A DNA stretch of 64,000 nucleotides from Chloroflexota bacterium (GTDB taxonomy: Bacteria > Chloroflexota > Dehalococcoidia > JAUQQI01): contig PSKS01000003.1 in the NCBI GenBank assembly GCA_040289115.1, positions 35,515-99,514 on the forward strand, given 5' to 3'. The notes below the pieces were generated by a model, which saw nothing but the letters and a program-made list of their open reading frames with translations, was not told where the DNA came from and did no database searches. This document shows, piece by piece, positions 2,369 to 39,613 of this stretch. Within the stretch, counting starts at the first letter, position 1. Each line of letters opens with the position of its first letter. The position numbers and the translations under genes were made by a program.

Positions 2369-4054
2369 CTAACGCTGGCCCGTTTTCACGTAGATGTCCA
2401 GGAACTTATACAGCCAGTTGGAGGGGTGAACTTTGACTCCCCCGGTTCGACGGCTGACCCCAACCACGCCCACGTCATGGGTAAGGGGCACCCAGAGGGC
2501 GTTCTCATGAACAATCCGCTGGAGCTCCTCATAGATTTGCAACCGCTGGGTCTCATCGAGGGTGGAGCGGGATCTTTCAAGCAGACCGTCGGTTTTGGGG
2601 TCGGCCCAATCGAACCGATTGGGGGCTGGCCGCTGCCGGCTGTGGAAGTAGAAATAAAGAACGTCCGCATTGCTGTAGAAGACACTGATGGCGAAGGTTT
2701 GATGTTCCCCTGCCCGCAGGGCGGCGAAGAAAGCGGCGCTCTCCATCGAGCGGATTTCCAGTTCCACCCCAACCCGACGCCACTGCTCCTGGACGACCTG
2801 GGCCTGAAGCTTTGCGGCTTGGGTGTCGGTGGTTATGTGGTTGAGCTTGAGCCGCTGGCCATCCTTCTGGCGGATGCCGTCCGGCCCAGGCCGCCAGCCG
2901 GCTTCTTCCAAGAGTTGTTTGGCCCGTTCCGGGTCAAACTTGTAGGCGGCCTGCTCAATTCCCTTCCAATAGCCCCATGTCTTCGGGTGGAGGACCCCCA
3001 AGGCCGGTATCGCAAGCCCATAGCGTACTGAGGAAATGATTTCTTCTTTGTTGGTGGCGTGGTTAAGGGCCCGGCGTACCCGGACGTCCCTAAGGATGGG
3101 GTCCGAGGTCTTCAGGCCTATGTATGCCGTCTGGAGCTGGTCATATTTGACGACGGATACGTTAGCGGATTTCTCGAGCCTGGAAACCTCGACTCCCGGA
3201 ACGTCGCTAAGTATGTCGATATTTCCGGCTTCGAACTCGGCTACGCGGGTCCCTTCCTCGGGAATGATCCTGAATTCCACCCGGTCCACGTAGGCCGGTC
3301 CCTGGTTTGAGAAAATCTTGGGTCCCCACGTGTAGTCCGGGTTGCGTTCGAGGATGAGGCGCTGATTGCGCGTCCATTCCACGAACTTGAATGGACCTGT
3401 CCCGTCGGCGCCGGTTGCGCCGTAATTTTGACCGAGCCGCTCGACCGCTTCCCGATTTAGGATCGAGGCCCAGCCAATGCTCAGGTTGTCGAGAAGCAGC
3501 ACAAAAGGCTGCGAAAGCCGAATCACGACGGTATAGTCGTCGGGGGTTTCGACCGCCGTTACCTGGTCGATATTGTAGGCGGTCGGGGACCGCGGCGTGG
3601 TTTTCCAGCGCTCAAAGCTGTATTTTACGTCGGCCGCGGTGAAGGACTTGCCCGAATGAAAGCGGACGCCCCGCCGCAATCGGAAGGTGTAGACGAGGCC
3701 GTCCGGGCTTATCTCCCACGATTCGGCCAGGCCCGGTTTGATGGTCCCGTCGAAGTCCAGAACCACCAGGGTATCGTGGATCATTTGAAGGGTGCGGGAA
3801 GCCCATAGGTGCGTGGTCACGTGGGGATCAAGGCTCTCCGGGTCGGCCGTTAGCTGAACTGTTAGGTTTCCCCCCCGCTGGGGGGTCTCCGTTTCAGGGG
3901 TAACCGCAGGCTGGGAGGTACCTGGACTGCAGGCTTCCACGATTGGGCCCAAGCCGATCAGCGCCCCAGCCCCGAGAGCCCGAAGGAAATCCCGTCGGCT
4001 GAGCCTGAACGAAGGCAGCCCTTGAATCCAGAACCGGTTATCACGGGTCCTCAC
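2369..4054 (-). CDS. ABC transporter substrate-binding protein, family 5 (peptide/nickel type), Tat/lipoprotein-like leader
   Basis: 561 aa. The leader SRRDFLRALGAGALIGLGPIVEAC has a twin-arginine motif plus a Cys. The body resembles family-5 solute-binding proteins. It is the first gene of the SBP-permease-permease operon. Confidence 0.9.
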   Translation of the reverse strand: MRTRDNRFWIQGLPSFRLSRRDFLRALGAGALIGLGPIVEACSPGTSQPAVTPETETPQRGGNLTVQLTADPESLDPHVTTHLWASRTLQMIHDTLVVLDFDGTIKPGLAESWEISPDGLVYTFRLRRGVRFHSGKSFTAADVKYSFERWKTTPRSPTAYNIDQVTAVETPDDYTVVIRLSQPFVLLLDNLSIGWASILNREAVERLGQNYGATGADGTGPFKFVEWTRNQRLILERNPDYTWGPKIFSNQGPAYVDRVEFRIIPEEGTRVAEFEAGNIDILSDVPGVEVSRLEKSANVSVVKYDQLQTAYIGLKTSDPILRDVRVRRALNHATNKEEIISSVRYGLAIPALGVLHPKTWGYWKGIEQAAYKFDPERAKQLLEEAGWRPGPDGIRQKDGQRLKLNHITTDTQAAKLQAQVVQEQWRRVGVELEIRSMESAAFFAALRAGEHQTFAISVFYSNADVLYFYFHSRQRPAPNRFDWADPKTDGLLERSRSTLDETQRLQIYEELQRIVHENALWVPLTHDVGVVGVSRRTGGVKVHPSNWLYKFLDIYVKTGQR

Positions 4055-4140: not shown

Positions 4141-4391
4141 GGTTACCTCAGACCTTGGTCACCGACTGGGGTGGAGAATTGGGCGGACGGTGTTGAAAAA
4201 GCTGGGGATAATGGGGTCTGGGAAGCGACCGGGTCTGGATTAAGATGGGGCCGAGGCAGGAGGAGCGAAGCCGAGCGCTCCCCTCCCCAAAATTCCGACG
4301 AAAGGGGGGATTGACAACCGACCGCTCGGAGCCACCTGGGTGGCTACCAGAAGGGAATTTCAAGAAAGGAGGTGAGGGGTCTCAGCTCGCG
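4141..4391 (+). other. ORF-less, G-tract/C-tract-rich structured region preceding an intrinsic terminator (candidate cis-leader or small RNA)
   Basis: The track ORFs here (4245..4481, 4148..4363) are low-complexity and run through the terminator. Several local hairpins are visible, e.g. GGAGGAGCG-AAGCCGA-GCGCTCCCCTCC around 4258-4286. An AGGAGGTG at 4366-4373 has no start codon at SD distance. Confidence 0.3.
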
Positions 4392-4432
4392 CCGGCGGAC
4401 TCTAGAGGGGGGACTAGAGCCCGCCGGTTTTT
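4392..4432 (+). terminator. Rho-independent terminator (plus strand)
   Basis: CCGGCGGACTCTAG (4392-4405) pairs with CTAGAGCCCGCCGG (4414-4427): 13 bp plus one A/C mismatch. The loop is the 8-nt AGGGGGGA, followed by TTTTT (4428-4432). Confidence 0.7.
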
Positions 4433-4477
4433 GCTTGTCAAATCCAATTGGAGGTTTCGAAGGCACCGGAGAATGGG

Positions 4478-4642
4478 ATGACGGAACTTGTCTGCCCCAA
4501 GTGCGGCCGGCCTAACCTTAAAAATATCGGCGGCGGCTTTTACCTGTGCTCGGCCGCCAGCTCAGGTTGCGGCAGTATCTGGCATGAACGCCACCTGTTC
4601 CAGGCCCTTAGTCAGCGCCGCGAAGGGTCGGAACAGGACTAG
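4478..4642 (+). CDS. Small zinc-ribbon protein (54 aa)
   Basis: ATG at 4478 is preceded by GGAGA with 5-nt spacing. The track start TTG 4448 has no SD. The product is MTELVCPKCGRPNLKNIGGGFYLCSAASSGCGSIW..., with CxxC plus C..C zinc-ribbon spacing. No homolog recognised. Confidence 0.45.
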   Translation: MTELVCPKCGRPNLKNIGGGFYLCSAASSGCGSIWHERHLFQALSQRREGSEQD

Positions 4643-4645
4643 CCT

Positions 4646-4942
4646 GGTGATGCCGTGTGTAAGTTTAGAAACATTTGAGATCAGTGGCCGGCAGCCGAGA
4701 CCTTGACTTAAAAAACAACAGGGACATCTTTCCGGGCGAAACTTCAACCTTAACGTAAACGTTTAGCGTTTACGTTAAGGTTGTCAAGAACGTCAAGTTT
4801 GCGGGCCTGGGAGGTCACCCAGGGCGCTGTTTGGCCCCACCGGGCCGCCTTTGGCGGCCGTCCCCTTGGCTATCTTAAAGCCGAGCACCCGGAAAGGATG
4901 CCCCCTGTCCCGGATGTGTTGAACCTATACACGGATTTGACC
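4646..4942 (+). repeat. Intergenic cassette copy A (MITE-like: TIR-like ends, AT-rich palindrome, GC-rich core, terminal -35 box)
   Basis: Aligns end to end with rc(33285-33592). The core 4791-4942 is 138/152 identical with no gaps (hand count). See findings. Confidence 0.6.
4745..4783. repeat. Perfect 17-bp AT-rich inverted repeat (palindrome family, copy A)
   Basis: CAACCTTAACGTAAACG (4745-4761), loop TTTAG, CGTTTACGTTAAGGTTG (4767-4783). TGTCAA follows at 4782-4787. Confidence 0.9.
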
Positions 4943-4965
4943 AGGGCCGGTTGGGGGCCTAAAAT
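4937..4965 (+). promoter_or_regulatory. Hybrid promoter: -35 from cassette end, local -10
   Basis: TTGACC (4937-4942), 17-nt spacer, TAAAAT (4960-4965). The GT4 ORF start at 4978 is only ~12 nt downstream of the -10. Confidence 0.55.
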
Positions 4966-4977
4966 CGATCCGACGCG

Positions 4978-6258
4978 GTGAGCATCCTGGGAGGCGTACC
5001 GACCGGTGTCGTTCGGCCGGTGGAGGCCGCCTGGCCGGACCTTTCAGCGGGCCGGAAGCGGGCGGCCCGGTCGTACCGGGTCCTGAAAATCGCCCCGACG
5101 GCCTTTTTCTCCGACTACGGCTGCCACGTCCGGATCCTGGAAGAGACTCGGGCCCTGCAGCGGCTCGGCAACCGGGTTGTCATCTGCACCTACAATACTG
5201 GCGCCGACCCGGTCGGCGTCTGCGTCCGGCGGGCCCTTAACACCCCCTGGTGGCGGACGGTCCGGGTTGGGTCGAGCCGGCGCAAGTTTTTCTACGACTT
5301 CTGGCTCCTCCTTAAGGCTTTTGAGACCGCCCTGCTCTTCCGGCCCGATATCATCCACGCCCACTTGCACGAGGGCGCCCTGATCGGCACGCTAATCGGG
5401 CGCATCCTAGGCGTCCCCGTCATCTTCGACTTCCAGGGGAGCCTTACTTCGGAGATGGTCGACCACCGCTTTCTGGACCCTGACAGCCTTTGGTATAGCC
5501 CCCTGCGGCTGCTAGAGTGGGTTATCGACCACTGGGCAGCCGTCATCGTAACCAGCAGCCGCAACGCCGCCGACATCCTGGTCCGGGATTTCGGCTACCC
5601 CCGGGCCAAGGTCAGAACCATCCCCGACTGCGTGGACGCAACGACCTTCAGGCCGCGGTGGCTCCGGGACGACTTGGGGGGAATCGAGCGGCTCCGAAGC
5701 CGGCTGGGCATCCCGCCCGACCGCAAGGTGGTCGTCTACCTCGGGCTCCTGGCCGAGTACCAGGGGATCGGCCTTTTGCTGGAGGCCGCCCGCCGTCTCA
5801 TCGACCGGGGCTTGCCGGTTCACTTTCTCATCATGGGGTTTCCGGGCGAGGAGTTTTACCGGCAGCGGGCCGAGCAGTTGGGCGTCGGTCCGTTCGTAAC
5901 CTTTACCGGCCGGATAAGCTACGCCCTTGCTCCCGACTACCTGCTCCTTGGGGATGTGGCCGTCTCGCCGAAGCTGAGTGAGACTGAGGGCAACGGCAAA
6001 CTGCTTAACTATATGGCTTGCGGCCTGCCTACAGTCGCCTTTGATACGCCGGTGGCCACCGAAATTCTCGGGGACGCCGGGCTCTATGCCCGGGCGGGCG
6101 ATCCCGATTCGCTGGCCGGCCGCATCGCCGAACTGCTCACCGACCCGGTGCGGGCCGAGGCCCTGGGGCGGCGGCTCCGACGGCGGGCGGAGGCCTATTT
6201 CTCCTGGGACTGGGCCGCCCTCCAGTTCGTGGAGCTTTACAAGGAGCTGGTCGGCTGA
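4978..6258 (+). CDS. Glycosyltransferase family 4 (GT-B fold)
   Basis: 426 aa. It has the N-terminal ...YRVLKIAPTAFFSDYGCHV and the C-terminal GT1/GT4 E-x7-E region (SETEGNGKLLNYMACGLPTVAFD). The start codon is uncertain (GTG 4978 or GTG 5020). Confidence 0.85.
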   Translation: MSILGGVPTGVVRPVEAAWPDLSAGRKRAARSYRVLKIAPTAFFSDYGCHVRILEETRALQRLGNRVVICTYNTGADPVGVCVRRALNTPWWRTVRVGSSRRKFFYDFWLLLKAFETALLFRPDIIHAHLHEGALIGTLIGRILGVPVIFDFQGSLTSEMVDHRFLDPDSLWYSPLRLLEWVIDHWAAVIVTSSRNAADILVRDFGYPRAKVRTIPDCVDATTFRPRWLRDDLGGIERLRSRLGIPPDRKVVVYLGLLAEYQGIGLLLEAARRLIDRGLPVHFLIMGFPGEEFYRQRAEQLGVGPFVTFTGRISYALAPDYLLLGDVAVSPKLSETEGNGKLLNYMACGLPTVAFDTPVATEILGDAGLYARAGDPDSLAGRIAELLTDPVRAEALGRRLRRRAEAYFSWDWAALQFVELYKELVG

Positions 6259-26159: not shown

Positions 26160-27508
26160 TCTCCCCCGGCCTGCCCCCAGCCCGGCAAGAAAACCACGTC
26201 TAGCCTCGGGTCGTGGCCCAGCAGGCCGACGTATCGGGCCCAGGCGATGGCCGTCTCCAGCTGCCGGCCCGCCTCGGCCCGACTAAAGACCTGCTCCAGC
26301 CGAGACCGAAAGACCTGGGCGAGAATCCGGTGCCGGGGACTCGCCTGGAGGGCCTCCATCAGGTCCCGGATCAGCTCCACCCGGTCTAGGAGCTGGCGGC
26401 GCAGGATGCTCCGGCGACCTTCCGGGTCGGCCACGGCCAATTTCCGACCGGCCTCGGTCAGCAGCACATCCCCCTCCACCACCTCCACCAAGTCCAGCAG
26501 GTCGGCGGCTTCCACCACCGGCAAGAGGTCACCGGCCTCGAGGCCCAGATCCTCTGCCAGCCGGTAAAGGTCTTCCCGGCCGCCCCGGGCCCGGACTTGC
26601 TCCACTAATCCGGCCACCTGCCCCAAAGAGACATGGGGAAGCATCTGGTAAACGGGGGGCGCCTCGGCCGGTACTTCCGGTTGCCCCACAGCGGACACCA
26701 GGGTCTCAGCCGCCGGGCTGGTCATGACCCGGTAGACCACGTCCACCAGGGCCGCCCGCTCCGGGCCCCGGACCTGCCGCAAGTCAGGGGGCAGTCCCGG
26801 AAGCTCCAGCCGAACCCGGGCCGGGTTTGCCCCTAGGATCACGATTCGGTCCGCCAGGGCCGCGGCCTCATCGATGTTGTGGGTCACCATCAGGACGGCC
26901 CGGGTCGGCAGCCGCCGCCCAACCCATAACTCGAAAAACTCCCGCCTCAGGTTCTCGGCCGTAAGCACATCCAAGGCTGAGAAGGGCTCGTCCATGAGCA
27001 GCACTTCCGGACCCACCGCTAGGGCCCGGGCAAAACCCACCCGCTGGCGCATTCCGCCTGAAAGCTCCCGGGGGTAGGCCGTTTCAAAACCCTTAAGGCC
27101 CACCAGCTCCACCATCTCCCGAGCCCGCTGCTCCCGGCTCCAGCGGGGAATACCCCGGGCCAGCAGGCCGAGTTCCACGTTTCCCAGCACGGTAAGCCAG
27201 GGGAAGAGGGCAAAGGTTTGAAAGACCATAGCCACCGCCGGGTTAACCCCCCGCAGGGGCTCACCCCGGACCAGCACCTGCCCTCTGGACGGTGGGACCA
27301 GACCCGCCAGGATGCGCAGCAGGGTCGATTTGCCGCAGCCCGAAGGCCCCAGCAGGGCCACAAATTCGCCCTCGGAAAGCTCCAGGCTAACCCGGTCCAG
27401 AATGAGGACGGGCTGACCGTCGCCGTAGATTTTAGTGACCTGGTCGGCTTTGAGCAAGGGCACCGGCATGGTTCTAGTCGAGCCGGAATCGGGCCTCAGC
27501 CCAACCAT
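26156..27508 (-). CDS. ABC transporter ATP-binding protein (nitrate/sulfonate/bicarbonate type) with C-terminal extension
   Basis: 450 aa with Walker A GPSGCGKST, signature LSGGMRQR and Walker B LLMDEP. A ~190-aa C-terminal domain follows. An alternative start is ATG 27469. Confidence 0.85.
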   Translation of the reverse strand: MVGLRPDSGSTRTMPVPLLKADQVTKIYGDGQPVLILDRVSLELSEGEFVALLGPSGCGKSTLLRILAGLVPPSRGQVLVRGEPLRGVNPAVAMVFQTFALFPWLTVLGNVELGLLARGIPRWSREQRAREMVELVGLKGFETAYPRELSGGMRQRVGFARALAVGPEVLLMDEPFSALDVLTAENLRREFFELWVGRRLPTRAVLMVTHNIDEAAALADRIVILGANPARVRLELPGLPPDLRQVRGPERAALVDVVYRVMTSPAAETLVSAVGQPEVPAEAPPVYQMLPHVSLGQVAGLVEQVRARGGREDLYRLAEDLGLEAGDLLPVVEAADLLDLVEVVEGDVLLTEAGRKLAVADPEGRRSILRRQLLDRVELIRDLMEALQASPRHRILAQVFRSRLEQVFSRAEAGRQLETAIAWARYVGLLGHDPRLDVVFLPGWGQAGGD

Positions 27509-29198
27509 ATAGGCGGCGCCAGAAAAGCCGGTTAAGACTTACCACTATAAAGGCCATCAGGATAGTCCCGGCCAGGAGGCCGGCCGTATCTCCGGTTTCC
27601 GCCCGGCTAACAATAAAGGAGCCCAGGCCCACCGTCCGGTAAGTCTCCCCGCCGAAGCTGACGTATTCCCCCACCACCGTGGCGTTCCAGGCGGCCCCGG
27701 CCGCGGTGATGAGACCGGTCACCAGGTGGGGAAAGATCCCGGGCAACAGCAACCGGCGCCACCGGACCCACCCGCCGAGCCGGAAAATCTCGGCCGCATC
27801 CAGGAGGTCCCCCGGTATCGTCAAGGCGCCGGCTACCACGTTAAAAAGTACGTACCACTGGCTTCCCAGCAACATCAAGAACACGGCGGCCAACTCTATC
27901 CCGGCCGGGAGGCGGATAACCAGCAGGACCACTGCCGGGAAGAGGGCCGTGGCCGGGACGGAGGCCGCCAGCTGAACCAAAGGAAGAACTCGGGCGCCAA
28001 GCTCCCGCCGGAGCCCCACCCCGACCCCCACCGGGACCGCCCAGGCCGCGGCAACGGCCAAAACTAACAAGACCCGGGCGAAGCTGGCCCCAGCTCCGGC
28101 CGCCAGTTCGACCCAGTCGGCCGGGCCCAGTCCCAGGAGCAGCTGGGCCGCCTCCGCCAAACCCCAGCCGACTCCGGCCGCAGCCCCTAGCCCCGCTCCC
28201 ACCCAAAACCACCGGCGCCGGCCCGGCTTTTCGGCCTTGCTCGGTCTGGGCATTCGGGTTTCCAGCCACTGAAAAAGCTGGTTGCAGGCCTCATCCAGAA
28301 GGCCCACTGCCGGTCGCAAAATCGCGCGCAAAACCCAGCCGACCAGGGCCGACCGCCGGAGCAGACCGAGCACCGGCGCCCCCGGTGGCCGAAGGCCCCC
28401 CGTTTGCTCGTACCGGAAGCGGTCGGCCCATTGAAGGAGGGGCCGCCAGAGCAGCTGGTCAACGGCCACCACCAGCCCGATTAAAGTTAAAAGGCCCAGC
28501 CCAAGCGCCCCCACCTCCCCCCGGTCGGCCGCCGTTCGCAGATATGCTCCTAGCCCCGGAAGCTTAAAAGATTGGGACCCAACGCCGAACTGCTCGGCGG
28601 CCATCAGGAAAAACCAACCGTTGGCCCAGCTCATGACCGAGTTTAGGATCAGGGGAATGAGGCCGAAGGGAAGCTCCAGGCGGGTGAACCGCAACCAGCC
28701 GTTCAGCCGGAAGCTGGTGGCCGCTTCCCTGAGCTCCTGCGGTATGCCAATGAGGGAGCCGTAAAAGCTGAATGCCAGGTTCCAGGCCTGCGAGGTAAAA
28801 ATTAAAAGGATGGCGGCCAGCTCCGGTCCCAGAAGGCTGCCGGGAAAGAGGGCGGTGGCCGCCAGGACGGCCGCCGGGAAAAAGGCCATGATGGGCACGC
28901 TCTGCAGAATGTCCAGGGCCGGTAACATCAGCCGCTCGGCCTGACGGTTCCCGGCGGCCACCCGGGCGTAGGATAGGCTGAAAGCCAGGGAGAGGCCGTA
29001 GGCAGCCAGCATTCGGCCTGCCGAAAGCAGGGCATATAGGGGCAGGGCCGCCGGCGAGAGGTCTATCTCGGCTGCTGGGGCCGCCACCCGGGAATACCGG
29101 GTAGCGGCCACCACCAGCCCATATGTGCCTGCCAATAGCCCACCTAAGATTACCAGGTCCGGCCACCTGTTGAGCAGCGGACGACCAAGACGAAGCAC
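27474..29198 (-). CDS. ABC transporter permease, duplicated (fused) permease domains
   Basis: 574 aa with two binding-protein-dependent permease modules. It lies upstream of the matching ATPase. Confidence 0.85.
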   Translation of the reverse strand: MLRLGRPLLNRWPDLVILGGLLAGTYGLVVAATRYSRVAAPAAEIDLSPAALPLYALLSAGRMLAAYGLSLAFSLSYARVAAGNRQAERLMLPALDILQSVPIMAFFPAAVLAATALFPGSLLGPELAAILLIFTSQAWNLAFSFYGSLIGIPQELREAATSFRLNGWLRFTRLELPFGLIPLILNSVMSWANGWFFLMAAEQFGVGSQSFKLPGLGAYLRTAADRGEVGALGLGLLTLIGLVVAVDQLLWRPLLQWADRFRYEQTGGLRPPGAPVLGLLRRSALVGWVLRAILRPAVGLLDEACNQLFQWLETRMPRPSKAEKPGRRRWFWVGAGLGAAAGVGWGLAEAAQLLLGLGPADWVELAAGAGASFARVLLVLAVAAAWAVPVGVGVGLRRELGARVLPLVQLAASVPATALFPAVVLLVIRLPAGIELAAVFLMLLGSQWYVLFNVVAGALTIPGDLLDAAEIFRLGGWVRWRRLLLPGIFPHLVTGLITAAGAAWNATVVGEYVSFGGETYRTVGLGSFIVSRAETGDTAGLLAGTILMAFIVVSLNRLFWRRLYGWAEARFRLD

Positions 29199-29245
29199 CA
29201 GTTCATTTCTCCCCTGGGAGGCTGGGATGCCGGGCCATTTTTGAC

Positions 29246-29284
29246 AACCTTAACATAAACACGAAACGTTTATGTTAAGGTTGG
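29246..29284. repeat. Perfect 16-bp AT-rich inverted repeat (palindrome family, solo copy B)
   Basis: CAACCTTAACATAAAC (29246-29261), loop ACGAAAC, GTTTATGTTAAGGTTG (29269-29284). It is flanked by TTGACA (29242-29247) and TGTCAA (29292-29297). Confidence 0.9.
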
Positions 29285-29304
29285 TATTTATGTCAAGAAT
29301 GTGG

Positions 29305-29496
29305 TCAGGAGGGTCGCTTCTCTTCCTCGGCCGTTCGCTCGGGTTCGCCGGAGGCCTCCCGCATCGAGCGGCGAAACTCCCGGACCGTATCCCCGAGGGC
29401 CCGGCCAATGTCGGGAAGCTTGCCTGGCCCGAAAAGGATGAGCACGATAAGCAAGATTACGAGCAGATGGGCAGGTTGAAAGAGACCTTCGATCAT
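29305..29496 (-). CDS. tatA: Twin-arginine translocase subunit TatA/E
   Basis: 63 aa. [35 protein letters not shown] is a canonical TatA N-terminus. Confidence 0.9.
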
Positions 29497-33130: not shown

Positions 33131-33176
33131 CCACAATATATCGGGGTCAGATAAGCTTTAGAAGCCAAGATATCGG

Positions 33177-33249
33177 CTGGGGAGCCAGGATTCGAACCTG
33201 GGATCTCCTGATCCAGAGTCAGGCGTGTTACCAGCTACACCACTCCCCA
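33177..33249 (-). tRNA. tRNA-Gln (anticodon CUG)
   Basis: Minus strand: TGGGGAG acceptor, D-arm GTGT..ACAC, anticodon arm CCTGA-CTCTGGA-TCAGG, T-arm CCAGG-TTCGAAT-CCTGG, CTCCCCA-G. No CCA is encoded. Confidence 0.95.
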
Positions 33250-33260: not shown

Positions 33261-33290
33261 ATTATATACACGGTCGACGGCGGCGGTCAA
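33261..33290 (-). promoter_or_regulatory. tRNA-Gln promoter: -35 from cassette end, local -10
   Basis: Minus strand TTGACC (33290..33285), 18 nt, TATAAT (33266..33261). The tRNA 5' end is 12 nt after the -10. Confidence 0.65.
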
Positions 33291-33592
33291 ACGCGTGTAT
33301 GGGTTCAACACATCTGGGACAAGGGGCATCCTTTCCGGGTGATCGGCTTTAAGATAACCAAGGGGACGGCCGCCAAAGGCGGCCCGGTGGGGCCGAACGG
33401 TACTCTGGGTTACCGCCCAGGCCCGCAAACTTGACGACTTTGACACAATCGCTTTAATTTTATGTCAAGTTTAGTTTCATCCGGAGGGATGCCCCTCGGG
33501 GTTTTTAAGTCAAGGTTTCGGCTGCCGGCCCGGCCGGTGTAATCGGCTGGGCCGGCCGGGCCGCTGTCTCAATTGTTTCTGAATTTACACAG
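33285..33592 (-). repeat. Intergenic cassette copy D (palindrome degenerated to TTGACA-N17-TGTCAA)
   Basis: Aligns with 4646-4942 (core 138/152). Its left ~90 nt overlap the 3' end and stop codon of CDS 33505..34011. Confidence 0.6.
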
Positions 33593-34011
33593 GTGCGCCC
33601 CAGAAGGATGGGGGCCAGGGTCTCGATGACCTCGGCCATGCGGCCCGCCACCCGTTCCGCCAGCTCCTCGGTCAGGGGCTCCAGCGGCCAGGTCTCGTGG
33701 AGGCGGGTCCAGCTGGAGGTCCACAGCTCCGGCTCAAAGCTTGGCCCAAGCCGGGCGCAGATGTCGAAAAAGTGGGCGTCGAACTCGGCCAGCCAGCGCC
33801 GGTTAGCCTCGGGGTCGGGTAGTTCGAAGTGGAGGCCCAGCTCGATCCGTTTGGCCCCGCCCAGGATCCAGACCTCGAAGTGGACCCTGGGGTCGTCGTA
33901 GTAGAATTTGACGAGGCTGGCCCCGTGCCGGACCTTGAAGCCGGCGAGCTCTGGGGGTAGCCGCCGGCGGATGGCCTCGGGTAGCGCGGCCAGAAACTGC
34001 CAGACCTTCAC
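33505..34011 (-). CDS. Hypothetical protein co-transcribed with glmS
   Basis: 168 aa. Its start overlaps the glmS stop by 4 nt. No domain recognised. The last ~28 codons lie inside cassette copy D. Confidence 0.7.
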   Translation of the reverse strand: MKVWQFLAALPEAIRRRLPPELAGFKVRHGASLVKFYYDDPRVHFEVWILGGAKRIELGLHFELPDPEANRRWLAEFDAHFFDICARLGPSFEPELWTSSWTRLHETWPLEPLTEELAERVAGRMAEVIETLAPILLGRTCVNSETIETAARPAQPITPAGPAAETLT

Positions 34012-35852
34012 TCGACGGTCACAGTCTTGGCCAGGTTCCGGGGCTGGTCGATGTCGCAGCCCCGGCGCAGGGCGATGTGATAGGCCAGCATTTGCAGAGG
34101 TATGACGCTCAGTGCCGGGCTCAGCAGTTCGTCGGTCTCGGGCAAAGGTATGAAGTAGTCGGCTTTGGCCGCAAGGCTTTCGTCGCCCTGGGTCCCCAGG
34201 GCGATGACCACCCCGTCCCGGCTCTTGACCTCGGAAACGTTACCCAGTATCTTGTCATAGACCCGGTCCTTCGGGGCCAGCACGACCACCGGCATCCTCG
34301 AGTCGATAAGGGCGATGGGACCGTGCTTCATCTCGCCGCCGGGATAACCCTCGGCGTGGATGTAGGAGACCTCCTTGAGCTTGAGGGCCCCCTCCAGGGC
34401 GATGGGGTAACTCACCCAGCGGCCCAGGTAAAGAAAATCGCTCATCTCGAAGAAGTTACGGGCGATGGCCCGGACCTGGGCCTCCTGGCCCAACACTTCC
34501 CCCACCAGGGCCGGTAGCCGGATAACCGCCCCCAGCCGCTCCTTAACCGCCTTGGGGCCCAGGGCCCCGTTGGCTTGGCCCAGCCGGACGGCCAGCAGGT
34601 AGAGGCTGACGACGCTGGAAAGGAAGGTTTTGGTGCTGGCGACGGCCATTTCCGGCCCGGCCCGCAGGTCGATAACCCCGTCGGCCAACCTTGTGGCCTG
34701 GCTGCCCATCACGTTGCAGAGGACCACCTGCTTTACCCCCTGCTGGCGGGCCCGGTTCATGGCCTCGAGGGTATCCACCGTTTCCCCCGACTGGGTGATG
34801 GCCACCAGCAGGGTATCCGCTCCTAAAACCAGCTCCCGGGCCCGGAACTCTGACCCGACCTCGGCCTCGGCCGGGACCCTGGCCAGGGATTCGATATAGA
34901 GCTTGCCCAGGAGGGCCGCATGCCAGGAGGTGCCGCAGGCCACGAGAACCACCCGGCGGAAAGCGGCCAGTTCGGTGTCGGTAAAGGGCAGCCCCTCGAA
35001 GGCGACGGTGCCGCCCTCCAGGTCCACCCGGCCCCGCAGGACGTTTAAGACCACCTCGGGCTGTTCGTGAATCTCCTTGAGCATGAAGTGGCTATAACCG
35101 GCCTTGGCCACCGACACCGGGTCGTACGGGCTCAGTTGGGGGGCCTTCTCCACTTCTCGCCCCTCCAGGTCCAGGTAGGTTACCCCGTTTGACCGGAGGA
35201 CGGCCAGCTCGCCACTTTCCAGGTACGCAACCTTCCGGGTGTATGGGAGGATGGCCGGTAGGTCGCTGGCGATATACATTTCGCCGACGCCGTAGCCCAC
35301 CACCAGCCCTCCGGCGTGGCCCAACCTGGCGCCGATTAGCTTGTCCGGTTCGTCTCGGCAGACCGCCAAGAATGCCTGGGCCCCCCGGAGCTCCCGGAGG
35401 GCCAACCGGACGGCGGTCACGAAGTCGGCGCCCGCTTTAAGCTTTGCCTCCACCAGGTGGGCGAAAACCTCGGTGTCGGTCTCCGACCTGAAGACGTGGC
35501 CCTCGGCTTGAAGCATCTGCTTAAGGCTAAGATAGTTTTCGATGATGCCGTTGTGGATTACCACCACGTTGCCGGTGCAGTCGGTGTGGGGGTGGGCGTT
35601 GACGTCGGAGGGTTTGCCGTGGGTGGCCCAGCGGGTGTGGCCGATGGCCACCGGACCGTGAGGGATCTCGCCGTTGAGCTGACTGAGAAGCCGCTCGAGC
35701 TTGCCGGCTTTTTTGGTGATGGCTACCCGACCGCCCGTCTCCAGCACCGCGAGGCCGCAGCTGTCGTAGCCTCGATACTCGAGCCGCTTCAGACCCTCTA
35801 AAACGACCGGTCCGCCCGACCGCTTACCGATGTAGCCCACGATCCCGCACAT
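34008..35852 (-). CDS. glmS: Glutamine--fructose-6-phosphate aminotransferase
   Basis: 614 aa with the MCGIVGY N-terminal nucleophile, two SIS domains and C-terminal NLAKTVTVE. Confidence 0.95.
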   Translation of the reverse strand: MCGIVGYIGKRSGGPVVLEGLKRLEYRGYDSCGLAVLETGGRVAITKKAGKLERLLSQLNGEIPHGPVAIGHTRWATHGKPSDVNAHPHTDCTGNVVVIHNGIIENYLSLKQMLQAEGHVFRSETDTEVFAHLVEAKLKAGADFVTAVRLALRELRGAQAFLAVCRDEPDKLIGARLGHAGGLVVGYGVGEMYIASDLPAILPYTRKVAYLESGELAVLRSNGVTYLDLEGREVEKAPQLSPYDPVSVAKAGYSHFMLKEIHEQPEVVLNVLRGRVDLEGGTVAFEGLPFTDTELAAFRRVVLVACGTSWHAALLGKLYIESLARVPAEAEVGSEFRARELVLGADTLLVAITQSGETVDTLEAMNRARQQGVKQVVLCNVMGSQATRLADGVIDLRAGPEMAVASTKTFLSSVVSLYLLAVRLGQANGALGPKAVKERLGAVIRLPALVGEVLGQEAQVRAIARNFFEMSDFLYLGRWVSYPIALEGALKLKEVSYIHAEGYPGGEMKHGPIALIDSRMPVVVLAPKDRVYDKILGNVSEVKSRDGVVIALGTQGDESLAAKADYFIPLPETDELLSPALSVIPLQMLAYHIALRRGCDIDQPRNLAKTVTVE

Positions 35853-35860
35853 GCCGTCCG

Positions 35861-35886
35861 GTAGCCTCCTTTAGTAGCCTCCTTTA
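35861..35886. repeat. 13-nt perfect tandem duplication carrying the glmS Shine-Dalgarno
   Basis: Plus strand GTAGCCTCCTTTA x2 (35861-35873, 35874-35886). On the minus strand this is TAAAGGAGGCTAC x2, ending 8 nt before the glmS ATG. Confidence 0.8.
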
Positions 35887-36182
35887 GGGGTACTGCCTAA
35901 TTATAACCCGGTTCCCCCTCTGGCGATAGCTCCGCCTAGCCAGTCCCCGGCACGGCTTTCGAACTATCTTCTCACGGCTAATGTCGTATATTGCGGGCAT
36001 TTTCGTAAATGCCCATGGCCGCGCCCCCACAGTTAAGCTGATTACCGCCTTCCGGTTTTTAAAATCACCTCAGCAACAAAATTGGTAAACCTAGGCTCGT
36101 CAGGACGCTCCTTTTGGGGTGGTAGCTGGGGAGTATAATAAGGGGGCGGATTCGGCCCGAGGCTGGGGTCCAGTTTTAGCCG

Positions 36183-36734
36183 GTGACCGACGTCGGCTTT
36201 AGCGACGAGGAGTTGCTTCGCCGGATCGCCAGGCGCGACCCGGCCGCTCTGGCGTCCCTCTATGACCGCTACGCCCCCCTGGTTTACGGCCTGGCCCGGC
36301 GCATCGTCCGGGACGAGGGGCAGGCCGAGGACCTTGTGCAGGAGGTCTTTCTGCGGGTGTGGAACCGGCCCCAAGTTTACGACCAGGGCCGGGGAAGCTT
36401 TCGGGCTTGGCTGCTGAGCGTAGCCCATCACCTGGCCATCGACCTGGTCCGGCGACGTCGGCGGGAAATAACCTACCAGGAAAAGCTCACCGACTCTTCC
36501 GATCCCCCGGACCCCTTCGAAAAGGTCATCAGCCAGGTGGACGGGGCGAAGGTACGGTCCCTGCTGGACCGGCTGCCCCCTGAGCAGCGGCAGGTGGTGG
36601 TGCTGGCCTACTTCGAAGGGCTTACCCAGCGGGAGATTGCCGAAAGGCTGGGGGAGCCCCTTGGCACCGTAAAGACCCGACTCCGGCTCGGCATAATGAA
36701 ACTGCGCGCCCTTTACGAGGATGGAGCCCAATGA
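36183..36734 (+). CDS. ECF-type RNA polymerase sigma factor
   Basis: 183 aa with sigma-70 region 2 (DLVQEVFLRVW) and region 4 (LTQREIAERLGEPLGTVKTRLRLG). Confidence 0.9.
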   Translation: MTDVGFSDEELLRRIARRDPAALASLYDRYAPLVYGLARRIVRDEGQAEDLVQEVFLRVWNRPQVYDQGRGSFRAWLLSVAHHLAIDLVRRRRREITYQEKLTDSSDPPDPFEKVISQVDGAKVRSLLDRLPPEQRQVVVLAYFEGLTQREIAERLGEPLGTVKTRLRLGIMKLRALYEDGAQ

Positions 36735-37477
36735 CGACCGCACCCGGTGGCTGTGAAGTGATCCGGCCCGAACTGGCGGCCCTGGCGGCCAACGCCCTGG
36801 AGCCCGCCGAGGCCGCACCCCTCCGGGCCCACCTTGAGGTTTGCGCCGCCTGCCGGGCCGAGTACACAGCCTACCTGGAGTCCCTGGCGACCCTGGCGGA
36901 GGAGGTGGCCGCGGAACCTCCCCCTTCGGTGCGCCGCCTGGTGGTGGCCGCGGCCCGGGCCGATGCGGCCGCATCGGCCCGGTGGCGGGAGCGGCTGCTG
37001 ACCCTGGGCCTGGTGGCGGCCCTGGTCCTGGCCGCCTTCAGCCTTGCTCAGCAGTTTGCCATACGCCAGCAGGTGGACCGGCTCCAGCGTTGGGCCACCG
37101 ACGAGTATGAGCTTTGGGATTTTGTCCTGAGCCCGCGCCTGGTTATCCGGCCCCTCCGGGGCACGGAGGCGGCGCCGGAGGCCTACGGCCGCCTGCTCCT
37201 CATCCCCGGCCGGCCGCGCGCGGCCCTGGTGGTGAATCACCTGCCGCCGCTGGACGGGGGTCGGGTTTACCAGGTTTGGCTCCGCCGGGACGGGGAGAGA
37301 ATCAGTCTGGACACCTTTCAGACGGACGAATCGGGGCGGGCCAGACTTTTCTTCCGGCTGCCCCCCGACTTCGAAACCTACCAGGAAATGGGAGTTACGA
37401 TTGAGCCAGCGGGCGGGGGCGCAGCCCCGAGTGGGGTAAGGGTTCTGGTGGGGTCCCTTAAAGAAAGCTCGGACTAG
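36731..37477 (+). CDS. Anti-sigma factor (zf-HC2 N-terminus, RskA-like C-terminus)
   Basis: 248 aa with H-x3-C-x2-C (AHLEVCAACRAEY), one TM segment and a C-terminal YQVWL...GVTIEPAGG RskA pattern. It overlaps the sigma gene stop. Confidence 0.85.
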   Translation: MTTAPGGCEVIRPELAALAANALEPAEAAPLRAHLEVCAACRAEYTAYLESLATLAEEVAAEPPPSVRRLVVAAARADAAASARWRERLLTLGLVAALVLAAFSLAQQFAIRQQVDRLQRWATDEYELWDFVLSPRLVIRPLRGTEAAPEAYGRLLLIPGRPRAALVVNHLPPLDGGRVYQVWLRRDGERISLDTFQTDESGRARLFFRLPPDFETYQEMGVTIEPAGGGAAPSGVRVLVGSLKESSD

Positions 37478-38364
37478 CCGCCTTCGGCGGCGACCTGTTC
37501 GGCGATCTCCTCGAGCCGGCGAACCACCGCCTCGATAATCCAGTCCGGGGTGGAGGCCCCGGCGGTTACCCCCACCCTGGACCGGCCCCGCAGCCAGGCC
37601 GGGTCCACCTCCTCCGGTACCTCGATGTGGTGGGTCTCCACCCCCTGGGCCGCGCACATTTCGGCCAGGTGGCGAGTGTTGGCGCTGTGCCGGCCGCCAA
37701 TGACCACCATCAGGTCGACCTGCCGGGCGAGCTCAACGGCGTCCTGCTGGCGCTTGATGGTGGGGTCGCAAATGGTGTTGACCACCCGGATCTCCACCGG
37801 CCTGGGGAAGGCCCAGTCCATAATTGCCTTGACGAACTGGCTGAAGAGGCTTACCGGCTGGGTGGTCTGGGAGACGATGCCGATTTTGTGGGGCAGAGGT
37901 TTAATGTTTTTGATATCTTCCCAGTTGAGGGTGGCCAGGGTCTTGGCGTTGCCGGCCCAGCCCAGGGCCCCCCTTACCTCGGGATGGTTCGGCTCGCCGA
38001 AAATGATAATGAAAAAGCCGTCGTCGGCCAGCTTTTTGACCGCCTGGTGGACCTTGGTAACCAGGGGGCAGGTGGTATCGATCACCTCGTAGCCCCGGGC
38101 CCGGGCCTCGGCCGGCACGTTCGGGCCGACGCCGTGGGCAGTGATGGCCACCACCTGGGCGTCCACCTCGTCGAGGCTCTTGACCACGGTAACCCCAACC
38201 TCTTCAAGGCGCTTGACGACCTGGAGGTTGTGAACGATGCCCCCGAGGCTCTGAACCCGGCCGTACTTGCGACCGGCGGCCTCGATGATCTCGAGGGCCC
38301 GGCGGACTCCGAAACAGAATCCCCGTTCCTCCGCCAGAATGATCTCCGGTCGCCGGTTCGCCAC
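37474..38364 (-). CDS. ispH: 4-hydroxy-3-methylbut-2-enyl diphosphate reductase
   Basis: 296 aa. GFCFGVRRALEI and the conserved Cys ligands give a full-length IspH/LytB pattern. Confidence 0.95.
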   Translation of the reverse strand: MANRRPEIILAEERGFCFGVRRALEIIEAAGRKYGRVQSLGGIVHNLQVVKRLEEVGVTVVKSLDEVDAQVVAITAHGVGPNVPAEARARGYEVIDTTCPLVTKVHQAVKKLADDGFFIIIFGEPNHPEVRGALGWAGNAKTLATLNWEDIKNIKPLPHKIGIVSQTTQPVSLFSQFVKAIMDWAFPRPVEIRVVNTICDPTIKRQQDAVELARQVDLMVVIGGRHSANTRHLAEMCAAQGVETHHIEVPEEVDPAWLRGRSRVGVTAGASTPDWIIEAVVRRLEEIAEQVAAEGG

Positions 38365-38409
38365 GCTTCACCCTCCAGGTAAGCCTACCCCCTAATAATA
38401 GCACACATC

Positions 38410-39561
38410 CTAAAGGGCGAAGAGCCGCCGGACCCGCTTCCGCTCAACCCCGATCTCCCGGAACCTGGCCGGCGAGAAGGGAGCCGGGTCGACCTCGGGC
38501 GTCCGGCCCAGGATCAGGTCGGCGACGAGTCGGCCGGAGTAGGGCCCCATCAGGATGCCGTTTCGGCCGTGGCCGGTGGCCAGCAGAATCCTTTCCCGCC
38601 CGGGGACCGGCCCGAGGATGGGGCGGTCGTCGAGGGCCAGGGGACGCAGACAGGCGGTGTGATTCACGAGCCGGGCATCGGCCAGGCCCGGAACCAGCCG
38701 AAGCACCCCCTCCAGGATGAAGTCCCGAGCCTCCGGGGTGGTGCTGGGGTCGAACCCGACCGACTCTTCGGTGGTCCCGGCGGTGATCAGCCCGTCCAGC
38801 TTCGACAGGACGTAGTGGTCGCCGTGCATGACGCAGTAGGCCAGGGGCGGCCCATCCAGTTTGAGGCGGAGGAGCTGGCCCCGGAGGGGCTCGACGGGGA
38901 CCGGCATCCCGAGCCATTCGCCGGCCAAGGCCGTCCAGGGACCCATCGCCAGGACAACGAATTCGGCGGCCACTGGTCCCGACCCGGCGGCAATCCTGAC
39001 GGGGCCATTGGGGGCCCATTCCAGGCCCCTTACGGGGGTGTATCTAAGCCGGGCACCGGCCCCTTCGGCCGCTCGGGCCAGGGCCAAAGTCAACCGGTAG
39101 GCGTCCACCTGCCCCTCCCCTTCGGCCAGGAGGCCACCCTGGATTTCGGGGCTAAGCCTGGGCTCGGCGGCCCGGAGTTCGGACACTTCGGCCCAGCGGA
39201 CCCTGGGGTCAAATCCGGCCAGGCGCTCGGCCACCGTCCGGAGGCGCATCGCCTCCTCTGGGCCGAGGGCCGGGATGAGTACGGTGAGGGGGCCGAAAAG
39301 GGGGTCGATGCCGGTCAGCTCCTTGAGCCGGGGGGCCAGGGTGCGGTGAAACTCCAGGGAGCGACGCATAAGCTCCCCCAGGGGGCCTGGGTGGCTGCTT
39401 TCCCCGACCGGGGTGAGGATACCGGCGGCCGCCCCGGAGGCCTGGCTGGCCACCGATTCCCGCTCCAGGACCAGGACCCTAAGGCCGGCGGCGGCGCAGA
39501 AATAGGCGGCGGAGAGCCCGATGACTCCGGCCCCGACGATAACCACGTCGTAACTTTCCAT
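38410..39561 (-). CDS. FAD-dependent oxidoreductase (DAO family, glycine oxidase/ThiO-like)
   Basis: 383 aa with N-terminal YDVVIVGAGVIGLSAAYF. Confidence 0.85.
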   Translation of the reverse strand: MESYDVVIVGAGVIGLSAAYFCAAAGLRVLVLERESVASQASGAAAGILTPVGESSHPGPLGELMRRSLEFHRTLAPRLKELTGIDPLFGPLTVLIPALGPEEAMRLRTVAERLAGFDPRVRWAEVSELRAAEPRLSPEIQGGLLAEGEGQVDAYRLTLALARAAEGAGARLRYTPVRGLEWAPNGPVRIAAGSGPVAAEFVVLAMGPWTALAGEWLGMPVPVEPLRGQLLRLKLDGPPLAYCVMHGDHYVLSKLDGLITAGTTEESVGFDPSTTPEARDFILEGVLRLVPGLADARLVNHTACLRPLALDDRPILGPVPGRERILLATGHGRNGILMGPYSGRLVADLILGRTPEVDPAPFSPARFREIGVERKRVRRLFAL

Positions 39562-39598
39562 GGGTACGCCTCCCTTGTAAGTTTAACGCCCCTGGGGT

Positions 39599-39607: not shown

Positions 39608-39613
39608 TGGGAA

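Follow-up and report, generated by a model that had tools for sequence, protein, structure and literature searches.

The short mobile elements of bacteria include MITEs such as Correia/NEMIS of Neisseria, RUP of Streptococcus pneumoniae and the small non-coding repeats of Deinococcus. Two further sets of systems are useful for comparison: TnsD/TniQ-directed elements have a single insertion orientation and a set distance to the sequence that they recognise, and IS1, IS2 and IS10 give hybrid promoters by means of an outward -35 box that they carry. Here we describe a repeated, gene-less element of about 276-296 bp from a 65% GC genome of a thermophilic, as yet uncultured Chloroflexota lineage living in the hot soil of an Antarctic fumarole, found in a 64-kb window, by which we mean the whole stretch of DNA that was analysed and to which all coordinates refer. 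The element is probably a miniature, non-autonomous, MITE-like DNA transposon that inserts beside TTGAC and whose ends serve as rearrangement breakpoints. Like the bacterial MITEs it is short (125-296 bp) and non-coding, is bounded by terminal inverted repeats and folds back on itself on both strands. It also shares with them several intergenic copies by promoters, internal-deletion size variants and a place at rearrangement breakpoints, and its unrelated loci show the same exact ends, two of them with empty counterparts in relatives. Unlike them, it has no sequence match in the collections searched and no Correia-type TA duplication, and its orientation is fixed, as is its distance of 5 nt to a TTGAC hexamer.

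Three copies lie in the window:

4656-4931, plus strand: copy 1, complete, 276 bp, delimited by left- and right-end patterns and by junctions compared with relatives; matched to copy 2 by nhmmer and blastn.
33296-33591, minus strand: copy 2, complete, 296 bp, with a 30-nt GC-rich hairpin insertion at 33529-33560; recovered by nhmmer and blastn.
40286-40503, plus strand: copy c3, diverged and 5'-truncated, without the left terminus, carrying the palindrome module and the right terminus ...GAGTCAACCTATACA.

Copy 1 is placed between a Zn-ribbon ORF and the GT4 gene, and copy 2 between an ORF180 homologue and tRNA-Gln. Our recount of the core (4791-4942 against the reverse complement of 33285-33436) gives the same 138/152 identical positions, ungapped, as the first-pass annotation of this DNA, and transitions make up 10 of the 14 differences. 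By blastn, 4686-4942 matches 33530-33285 (82% over 257 nt, E=3e-69), and 4656-4680 also pairs with 33591-33567. The ~30-nt indel noticed earlier in the left part is present, and to call the two copies near-identical was too strong, as the core stands at 91% and the left part at about 80% with indels. Nor are there two copies only. A mixed-pattern scan of metagenome contigs found two loci of one metagenome, L040, with 99.8% identity to the window, and L039, which holds a 125-bp copy with an MFS gene on one side and an S9 peptidase gene on the other. This L039 copy keeps both termini, lacks ~150 bp of the interior and has lost more than half of the core, of which only the 3' portion is left; the ends are therefore the conserved part. 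Copy c3 likewise ends in the same 10 nt as copy 1, and its core is very different from those of the other copies. In total, the window and the metagenome loci searched hold two full copies, one deletion derivative and one diverged copy. The flanks of the copies do not align to one another; together with the additional copies, this sets aside the plain segmental duplication, with two copies and aligning flanks, that had been named as the refuting case. No further copy was seen in the ~9 kb beyond the right side of the window, and the 32 loci that the pattern ACCCGGAAAGGATGCCCC returned over the genome contigs were all chance matches by nhmmer. Several independent assemblies end inside the element, which is expected because it is a repeat. 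A proposed homology of the S9 peptidase gene at L039 to the one beside the GT4 cluster of relatives was rejected at only 31% identity.

The internal architecture, given for copy 1 and for one isolated module, is as follows:

4656-4684, plus strand: left terminal inverted repeat TGTGTAAGTTTAGAAACATTTGAGATCAG, agreeing with the reverse complement of the right end at 20/29 aligned columns; kept in copy 2 and in the L039 copy.
4686-4715, plus strand: left-side module GGCCGGCAGCCGAGACCTTGACTTAAAAAA, which splits the outer from the inner left inverted repeat; in both full copies, absent from the 125-bp L039 copy.
4721-4738, plus strand: inner inverted-repeat arm GGGACATCTTTCCGGGCG, pairing with 4886-4905.
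4745-4783, no strand assigned: AT-rich perfect palindrome CAACCTTAACGTAAACG...CGTTTACGTTAAGGTTG, recurring at 29241-29283 and 40338-40370.
4784-4885, plus strand: GC-rich core with local hairpins at 4843-4859 and 4868-4882; 91% identical to copy 2.
4886-4905, plus strand: inner inverted-repeat arm CACCCGGAAAGGATGCCCCC.
4905-4931, plus strand: right terminal inverted repeat CTGTCCCGGATGTGTTGAACCTATACA, with the element end ...TACA-3' fixed by the c3 junction with coding sequence.
29241-29283, no strand assigned: lone palindrome module, without termini or core, between a tatA-like gene (minus strand; read by eye) and an ABC permease gene (minus strand).

The terminal inverted repeats are imperfect, ~29 nt long, of the form 5'-TGTG...TACA-3' with TGTRTARGTTCAAC-type ends, and reach inward for ~47 bp on the right while being split by the inserted module on the left. 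That an imperfect terminal repeat exists is borne out against shuffled sequences (copy 1 p=0.0065, copy 2 p=0.03, L039 copy p<0.0005); the match count differs from the earlier one, being 20/29 columns in copy 1. Both hairpins reported in the core are there, namely GGCCGCC-TTT-GGCGGCC (4843-4859) and GGCT-ATCTTAA-AGCC (4868-4882). The AT-rich palindrome holds as a module of the unit in copy 1, where it is perfect, and is only degenerate in copy 2; in c3 it lies at 40338-40370. Copy 2 forms the equivalent inner-arm pairing, 33478-33495 with 33322-33341.

An ORF at 4781-4981 might suggest a small protein. However, 8 of its codon changes are non-synonymous and 3 synonymous, the one ORF shared by all copies varies mostly in a non-synonymous way, and a coding signal is thus lacking; the protein-coding reading was rejected, in agreement with the earlier remark that the ORF translated in both copies shows no protein-level conservation. 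The six translated frames, concatenated, gave zero matches against 5.8 billion protein clusters, and no match to the element was found among plasmids and phages by blastn or among viral contigs with three patterns. The first-pass annotation could place the unit in no Rfam family, and none accommodates it: only tRNAs reach threshold, nothing fits the element even at E<=10, and the best non-tRNA scores are 15-21 bits against cut-offs of 42-143 bits.

Could the units be paralogous genes for a structured sRNA, lying upstream of promoters by chance and with the GC-rich core as the functional RNA? We regard this as very improbable. The folds are very stable, with z-scores of -5.9 to -7.2, several one-sided substitutions keep their pairs through G-U wobble in alifold models, and the lack of coding signal would suit an RNA gene. 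A T-run also follows the long inner stem in both full copies, in the antisense orientation only (the scan calls a terminator in copy 2 only, and that of copy 1 was read by eye). However, both strands form one closed foldback, and stability and wobble-compatible changes are equal on the two strands, which fits inverted repeats at the level of DNA better than a strand-specific RNA. The promoter scan gave no convincing internal promoter in copies 1 and 2, Rfam is silent as above, and the L039 copy has given up most of the proposed functional RNA while retaining both termini.

The sequence immediately beyond the right ends is summarized here:

4932-4965, plus strand: host sequence, 5-nt spacer CGGAT followed by the native GT4 promoter TTGACC-N17-TAAAAT, which stands without the element in three relatives (L050, L051, L053); promoter scan.
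33261-33295, minus strand: 5-nt spacer CGCGT followed by the tRNA-Gln promoter TTGACC-N18-TATAAT.
40509-40538, plus strand: promoter-like TTGACA-N18-AATACT in a host gene, 5 nt past the right end of c3 (scan 10/12).

All right ends (4/4) are followed by 5 nt and then by TTGACC, TTGACC, TTGACA or TTGCGC, that is, by TTGAC in three cases, where the frequency of TTGAC in the window is 8.4e-4 per oriented position. No shared target motif was seen in the left flanks of the copies. From the constant 5-nt gap, insertion appears to be site-specific and oriented, alongside boxes that resemble a -35. The arrangement TTGACC-N17/18 to a local -10 box, as first described, is present at both full copies; the interpretation that the unit itself carries an outward-facing -35, and with it the promoter half of a portable terminator-promoter cassette, fails at both sites checked. 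At copy 1, GGATTTGACC-N17-TAAAAT occurs upstream of the GT4 orthologues in the three element-free relatives. At c3 the TTGACA belongs to the coding part of the host gene that was interrupted, and both it and the AATACT hexamer are invariant in relatives L041, L045 and L048. A -35 box inside the repeated unit, which would define a portable promoter cassette, is thus not what we find, the boxes at copy 1 and c3 being of the host, and the box at copy 2 is presumably host sequence too, by analogy with copy 1. The similarity runs as far as TTGACC because the insertion sites share TTGAC 5 nt past the real end, not because the hexamer is cargo of the element. The real ends are accordingly 4656 and 4931 instead of the earlier bounds 4646-4942, whose last 11 nt, TTGACC included, are host DNA at copy 1. 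The likeness to IS1, IS2 and IS10, a -35 hexamer at the boundary of element and host located 17-18 nt from a host -10, is hence one of position: unlike theirs, the -35 here is host DNA and older than the insertion at copy 1 and c3. More generally, what looks like a "-35 box" where a repeat ends can be a target motif common to the insertion sites and not cargo. Against the MITE-like reading it should be said that only at copy 1 and c3 is TTGAC seen to be of host origin.

At both orthologous loci the element is missing from relatives with 77-94% protein identity. Their GT4 orthologues (94% and 86% identity) have no element, and the native promoter there adjoins other DNA; the ORF180 gene is intact and element-free in relatives L041-L049 (77-87% protein identity), where it is followed by zf_Tbcl. 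The corresponding parts of the window are:

33595-34011, minus strand: 5' part of the interrupted host gene (ORF180 homologue), running into the left end of copy 2 and matching the relatives up to ...PILLGR.
40504-40632, plus strand: 3' remnant of the same gene (ALTSDRLSVNTYAPGS...NNGIAQEAH*), with the zf_Tbcl gene next to it at 40635-40952.
33592-40285, no strand assigned: inverted segment of 6.7 kb with copy 2 (minus) and c3 (plus) at its ends, recognised from the gene order of relatives and tblastn against the window.

The cuts in the host gene fall exactly on two element ends, the left one of copy 2 and the right one of c3. The junction at copy 2 reads ...CTGGGGCGC, then ACC, then TGTGTAAA, and that at c3 reads ...CCTATACA followed directly by GCGCCTTGACA, where the uninterrupted target in a relative is CTGGGGCGCGCCTTGACA. 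Between them lie, inverted, the junction bases ACC, ORF180-5', glmS, ECF sigma, RskA, LytB, FAD oxidoreductase and geneA. The two halves of the split gene share GCACC versus GCGCC (4/5), or alternatively a 2-bp GC overlap; a similar look at other sites gave CG/CG only at copy 1 and nothing at L039. Exact look-ups of the Zn-ribbon and zf_Tbcl proteins, meant to reveal strains that have no insertion or keep the order without the inversion, found the same arrangement in all populations, and a chimeric geneA+GT4 protein query for relatives of geneA returned none among at least 120 matches listed, all of them GT4. For the sRNA explanation these loci are a further difficulty, as the unit is missing at syntenic positions in the relatives and a host gene cut exactly at the unit ends is left unexplained.

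The same junctions bear on a second alternative, in which an immobile regulatory or intergenic segment was spread by segmental duplication or gene conversion and was later acted on by homologous recombination. The known copies are few, they are intergenic and upstream of promoters, the palindrome module also occurs alone at 29241-29283, and homologous recombination between inverted repeats could give the inversion. Such a segment would not be expected, however, to end sharply at identical nucleotides in every copy, with ends that are mutually inverted, nor to cut host coding sequence at precisely these ends, leaving an overlap of 2-5 bp, nor to keep a constant 5 nt to host TTGAC at independent sites; a deletion derivative that retains both ends (L039) does not fit either. 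We consider this explanation unlikely, if slightly less so than the sRNA genes.

A third possibility is a site-specific recombinase module, either of a serine/tyrosine invertase or integrase or of an IS110-type system, with a DEDD recombinase guided by a bridge RNA that would be encoded in the core and whose loops would be complementary to target and donor, instead of a DDE-type MITE. The 2-bp GC overlap shared by the split-gene junctions corresponds to the signature of a 2-nt crossover core, the inversion between two oppositely oriented copies is precise, insertion next to TTGAC is oriented and sequence-specific, and the highly structured core has GTCAA motifs complementary to the target motif. 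That complementarity covers only 5 nt, however (TTGAC/GTCAA; by eye), the ORF180 target is unlike the abutted element ends, no recombinase gene adjoins any copy, and ~29-nt TG...CA inverted repeats are typical of DDE transposons; IS110-group elements are not known to have such terminal inverted repeats. This origin seems to us as improbable as that from sRNA genes.

Returning to the MITE-like transposon, the first-pass annotation had already named a non-autonomous mobile element as one of two readings, and the unaligned flanks, the termini of the L039 copy, the empty sites, the gene cut at the termini and the lack of an Rfam family all agree with it. Several observations weigh against this assignment: only 3-4 copies are seen in the DNA searched, there is no clean target-site duplication (GCACC/GCGCC 4/5 or GC at the split gene, CG/CG at copy 1, none at L039), and neither a transposase nor a longer element with matching termini occurs in the ~64 kb window plus about 17 kb more DNA of the same or co-occurring genomes. 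As for affiliation, the termini 5'-TGT...ACA-3' are like those of Tn7, Tn5053-Tn402 and Mu, whose transposases TnsB, TniA and MuA work with partners that select the target, and of their miniature derivatives. Set in register against the first 14 nt of the Mu left end, the right ends agree with it at 9-11 positions, which is a lead only. A 5-bp duplication as in these elements is possible, GCACC vs GCGCC, with 4/5 at one pair only, and the oriented insertion with the right end 5 nt from a TTG hexamer in 4/4 copies is a further resemblance. In contrast to them, TnsB/TniA, TnsC/TniB and TniQ genes were not seen in the window, and no array of repeated transposase-binding sites is evident in the element ends.

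IS30 offers other parallels: the ends of IS30A from E. coli K-12 start with TGTA and contain TTCAA, its 2-3 bp duplications (IS30A is flanked by AC/AC) recall the 2-bp overlap of the split gene, and neighbouring left and right ends acting jointly, as in the reactive abutted ends of (IS30)2, which cause inversions and deletions, would explain the inversion. A difference from IS30 is that a 2-bp duplication requires an asymmetric placement of the left end. Ancestry from IS30 was rejected, since anchored identity to the IS30A ends is 4-8/20 and gapped scores are no better than those of an IS911 control end. An IS200/IS605-derived PATE, a type with subterminal hairpins in place of terminal inverted repeats and with a conserved tetra- or pentanucleotide against its left end, was likewise dismissed: the element has terminal inverted repeats, its left flanks are without a motif, and TTGAC stands 5 nt past the other end.

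As a mechanism, we propose that a transposase whose gene lies at another place in the genome would move the element in trans and, through recognition of TTGAC, would integrate it in a single orientation that leaves 5 bp between its right end and a TTGAC-type hexamer downstream. In this 65% GC genome such hexamers are mostly promoter -35 boxes, and the element would therefore land directly upstream of host promoters, or in a gene that contains TTGACA-N18-AATACT. Its ends then acted as rearrangement breakpoints, the order of events being our reconstruction. The inversion could have followed insertion into the gene and recombination between inverted copies, or a transposase could have acted on the left and right ends of neighbouring copies. 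The ends at the split gene belong to dissimilar copies, c3 being without a left terminus and with another core, so extra events must be assumed on the MITE-like reading. A more ambitious version, which we put forward tentatively and think rather doubtful, is a promoter-hunting system, in which a transposase or selector would recognise TTGAC itself or the bound sigma factor/RNA polymerase and insert the element, oriented, exactly 5 bp upstream.

If the MITE-like reading holds, the element represents a previously undescribed MITE family from an uncultured thermophilic Chloroflexota lineage. The genome has been reshaped at its copies, with one gene split, 6.7 kb inverted and synteny lost upstream of the glycosyltransferase gene, and metagenome assemblies are fragmented at them. 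Targeting of promoters in a fixed register would be an unusual insertion specificity among bacterial transposons and would yield a simple sequence rule. Were promoter hunting true, the family would systematically put other DNA in place of what lies upstream of host promoters, and would prompt rearrangements between them.

The ~280-bp unit is present in the window as two full copies in opposite orientation. A blastn search of 4300-5300 against the window found two matches on the other strand, 4686-4942 to 33530-33285 (E=3e-69; 257 nt at 82%) and 4656-4680 to 33591-33567, and a repeat finder returned the same pairs as I1 (168 nt at 88%) and I2 (58 nt at 83%). The first-pass annotation had rightly flagged a real feature here as a probable mobile element; its hand count for the core, 138/152 identical with zero gaps between 4791-4942 and the reverse complement of 33285-33436, proved exact, with transitions in 10 of the 14 differences, and no alignment of the flanks was found outside the unit. 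We also scanned JGI metagenome contigs with a mixed exact/RY pattern built on the core, which yielded two loci from one metagenome: L040, which is the same organism's copy-2 locus at 99.8% identity and whose contig stops inside the element, and L039, a separate locus. Several independent assemblies likewise break inside the element, since repeats cause such breaks. The source of the DNA is fumarole soil at 65 °C from Tramway Ridge on Mount Erebus (PMC11657696), and assemblies ERZ1673964-7 and runs SRR6519253-6 contain identical genes. To judge from how the nearest homologues of the glycosyltransferase GT4 are named, the organism is a Chloroflexota MAG.

Copies of the element, with the sequence that follows ...TACA-3' when the ends are fixed
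Copy 1: 4656-4931 (+), with a small Zn-ribbon ORF (4448-4642) on its left and the family-4 glycosyltransferase gene GT4 (4978-6258) on its right; spacer CGGAT, hexamer TTGACC
Copy 2: 33296-33591 (-), between a 168-codon ORF (33505-34011), downstream of glmS, and tRNA-Gln (33175-33249); spacer CGCGT, hexamer TTGACC
L039 copy: 5885-6009 of a metagenome contig, a 125-bp version flanked by genes for an MFS protein (-) and an S9 peptidase (+); spacer CTGGG, hexamer TTGCGC
c3: 40286-40503 (+), a fourth, much diverged copy inside the window; spacer GCGCC, hexamer TTGACA

In the L039 copy, the left end TGTGCAAGTTCGAAAAATTTATGACAGTGGCCCGGCCGG is almost directly fused to the core's final ~80 nt and the right end ...GTCGAACCCATACA, and this core-plus-right-end stretch shares 96% identity with copy 1. 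The ends are thus the conserved feature, because a copy that lacks ~150 bp of interior still has both termini. The c3 copy lacks the left terminus and consists of the AT-rich palindrome module, a faint likeness to the core (GTTTGCGAGGCC; GGCTTTAAATTCC) and a right terminus, AACCTATACA, identical to that of copy 1. Searches of ~9 kb beyond the right edge of the window and of ~90 kb from relatives found no further copies. In a population 98.3% identical, the opening ~110 nt of copy 1 (L063 3165-3284, ERZ4120748) hold 6 substitutions, against 1.7% divergence for the locus overall; a GGGCG to GGATG change among them gives it the look of copy 2, and these changes could be gene conversion between copies.

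The palindrome module also stands alone. At 29241-29310 (module 29241-29283), TTGACAACCTTAACATAAAC...GTTTATGTTAAGGTTG with the extension GGTATTTATGTCAAGAATG lies, with neither the termini nor the core of the element, between a small tatA-like gene (-), read by eye, and an ABC permease gene (27474-29198, -), ahead of which the minus strand reads TTGACA-N18-TAAACG. It may be an operator/promoter module or a separately mobile piece. Within the c3 module, the minus strand at 40357-40386 holds a strong promoter-like site, TTGACA-18-TAAAAT (11/12), aimed at the 3' end of geneA, the gene to the left of c3; copies 1 and 2 have weak equivalents of this site only.

At its two ends the unit has inverted repeats that are imperfect and ~29 nt long. 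For copy 1, TGTGTAAGTTTAGAAACATTTGAGATCAG set against the reverse complement of its right end, TGTATAGGTTCAACACATCCGGGACAG, agrees in 20/29 aligned columns (p=0.0065 against shuffles), the corresponding values being p=0.03 in copy 2 and p<0.0005 in L039. The two ends change together, as L039 has GTTCGA at both and copies 1 and 2 have GTTYA there. A second inverted pair, GGGACATCTTTCCGGGCG (4721-4738) and CACCCGGAAAGGATGCCCCC (4886-4905), extends the right repeat inward and is separated from the terminus on the left side by the module GGCCGGCAGCCGAGACCTTGACTTAAAAAA; with both pairs, the whole unit therefore folds as a closed foldback. Folding z-scores over both copies range from -5.9 to -7.2, as might suit an sRNA family; however, the two strands of copy 1 fold equally well (-118.6 and -117.1 kcal/mol), and the Alifold substitutions are wobble-compatible in both orientations and hold no strand information. 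Such symmetry is expected of DNA inverted repeats and argues against a strand-specific RNA. Rfam gave only three tRNAs at gathering score and only noise over both copies at E<=10. The one frame that stays open in all copies shows 8 non-synonymous and 3 synonymous codon changes between copies 1 and 2, upholding the earlier view that conservation is not at the protein level, and all six translated frames found zero matches among 5.8 billion predicted proteins. Coding and known-RNA identities are both ruled out by these codon changes and searches. There were also no matches in plasmids and phages (blastn) or in viral contigs (three pattern scans).

Relatives also reveal exact junctions in the host gene ORF180, of which the 168-codon ORF beside copy 2 holds the 5' part. 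Its homologues, at 77-87% identity, are 178-180 residues long, and every relative has the order glmS(+), ORF180(+), zf_Tbcl(+), TsaD(-), TsaE(-), AIRS(-). The window protein tracks them only to ...PILLGR and then enters the left end of copy 2; the lost end (ALTSDRLSVNTYAPGSVAPT...NNGIAQEAH*) lies on the other strand at 40504-40632, straight after the right end of c3.

Junctions of ORF180 and the gene beyond
Closest relative: CTTTTGGGGCGCGCCTTGACATCGG
Window, copy-2 side: CTTCTGGGGCGC-ACC-TGTGTAAATTC
Window, c3 side: CAACCTATACA-GCGCCTTGACATCGG
zf_Tbcl gene: 40635-40952, same strand as the ORF180 3' end, opposite to the 5' part

From these readings, ORF180 was cut exactly at one left and one right terminus with a 2-bp overlap (GC), or a 5-bp duplication (GCACC vs GCGCC) if one substitution is allowed. 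By tblastn, the block between the junctions (ORF180-5', glmS, ECF sigma, RskA, LytB, on to 40285) runs in the opposite direction to its counterpart in the relatives, and every population sampled for this species shares the window's arrangement, one of them just 98.3% identical. The element could have entered ORF180 and then undergone homologous recombination with the inverted copy upstream of tRNA-Gln. Alternatively, a transposase would have taken the c3 right end and the copy-2 left end, then adjacent, and attacked ORF180 intramolecularly, as IS10 and IS30 do in inside-end or abutted-end transposition. This second route fits the dissimilarity of copy 2 and c3 better.

A 74-codon ORF (40407-40631, +) begins in c3 and reads in frame without a stop into the ORF180 3' remnant, which is ~86% identical to relatives, on par with the rest of the protein; to judge from this, the remnant may still be expressed or the splitting event may be recent. 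Across 35852-37700, next to glmS, the predicted ECF sigma/anti-sigma proteins are only ~50% identical to those of L045-L049, loci of relatives with ORF180 (glmS 89-90%, LytB 91-95%), a comparison based on overlapping ORFs (36042-36974 and 36713-37657) that may not be true genes; the pair may be fast-evolving or replaced. Elsewhere, amid otherwise housekeeping surroundings, 45034-47649 (+) encodes an 871-residue protein with a C-terminal Peptidase_S74 (endosialidase chaperone) domain and three internal 79-nt repeats (45926-46322, repeat D1), an architecture that resembles a tail fibre or adhesin.

Empty sites are seen at GT4, whose orthologues without the element (94% in L050, 86% in L051/L052 and L053) follow a pair of histidine-kinase and response-regulator genes. 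Upstream of GT4 the relatives read ...CCGGATTTGACCGGGGCGGGTCGGGGGCCTAAAATCGAT... and the window ...CTATACACGGATTTGACCAGGGCCGGTTGGGGGCCTAAAATCGAT..., and therefore the TTGACC-N17-TAAAAT promoter and the preceding GGAT are native host DNA; the element in copy 1 ends ...CCTATACA (4931). At c3, TTGACA represents codons of the interrupted ORF180. The first-pass annotation had the unit carry an outward -35 box as cargo, and this we reject, the box being host DNA at copy 1 and at c3. In none of the relatives is GT4 preceded by what lies to the left of copy 1 here, the Zn-ribbon ORF and a peptide ABC transporter, so copy 1 also sits on a synteny break.

Ahead of the Zn-ribbon ORF, the 9-mer GTCAAATCC (4439-4447) repeats in inverted form the GGATTTGAC (4933-4941) of the GT4 promoter, and thus an inverted 9-mer brackets this ORF and copy 1; it may merely be the common extended -35 motif of two divergent promoters. 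Within the SBP_bac_5 gene (2369-4054), at ~3126-3180, the 80-kb contig NODE_47 starts and the Logan contig L067 agrees with the window only to 3180, followed by 30 unrelated bases; strains may differ by a breakpoint here, or the solute-binding protein gene may have taken up an insertion.

The right end adjoins a TTG hexamer in the same orientation and at the same 5-nt distance in all four copies, and TAAAAT, TATAAT, AATACT and TATACT follow 17-18 nt past it in copy 1, copy 2, c3 and L039; a promoter scan calls the first three pairings promoter-like, the L039 pairing being by eye and not called. Since TTGAC has a window frequency of 8.4e-4 per oriented position, the chance of the same offset is ~7e-7 for the two verified host-derived cases and would be ~6e-10 for three. 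In ORF180 (TTGACA-N18-AATACT), both hexamers are invariant among relatives and the spacer is variable, in keeping with a genuine promoter inside the gene that serves zf_Tbcl. Most simply, the element would insert in one orientation and by sequence, 5 bp upstream of TTGAC, which in a GC-rich genome (65% in the window) is mostly a -35 box, so that insertion would mostly fall upstream of these. A fixed register would not arise from selection alone.

A non-mobile duplicated regulatory segment would account for copies lying upstream of promoters and a site-specific recombination module for an inversion, but the conserved termini, deletion derivative, empty sites and split gene weaken each of these, as they do the sRNA family. 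The unit agrees with bacterial MITEs in size, inverted repeats, copies and empty sites. No transposase was found among the window genes (Pfam on 20 large ORFs, annotation for the rest), nor was a longer element with the same ends seen. IS200/IS605-type identity is ruled out by the terminal inverted repeats, and IS30 kinship was rejected, as real E. coli K-12 IS30 ends score no closer in gapped alignment than an unrelated IS911 end. The unit starts TGT and finishes ACA, and, compared in register with the 14 nt that open the left end of phage Mu, its right ends agree at 9-11 positions. This likeness, the possible 5-bp duplication and the oriented site-directed insertion recall the Mu/Tn7/Tn5053 group, an affinity we treat as a lead only. 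Our conclusion is that the unit is most probably a non-autonomous transposon, which a transposase encoded elsewhere would move in trans. It would be a new element of an already known class (MITE), and its register beside -35-like hexamers is the reason for a whole-genome check.
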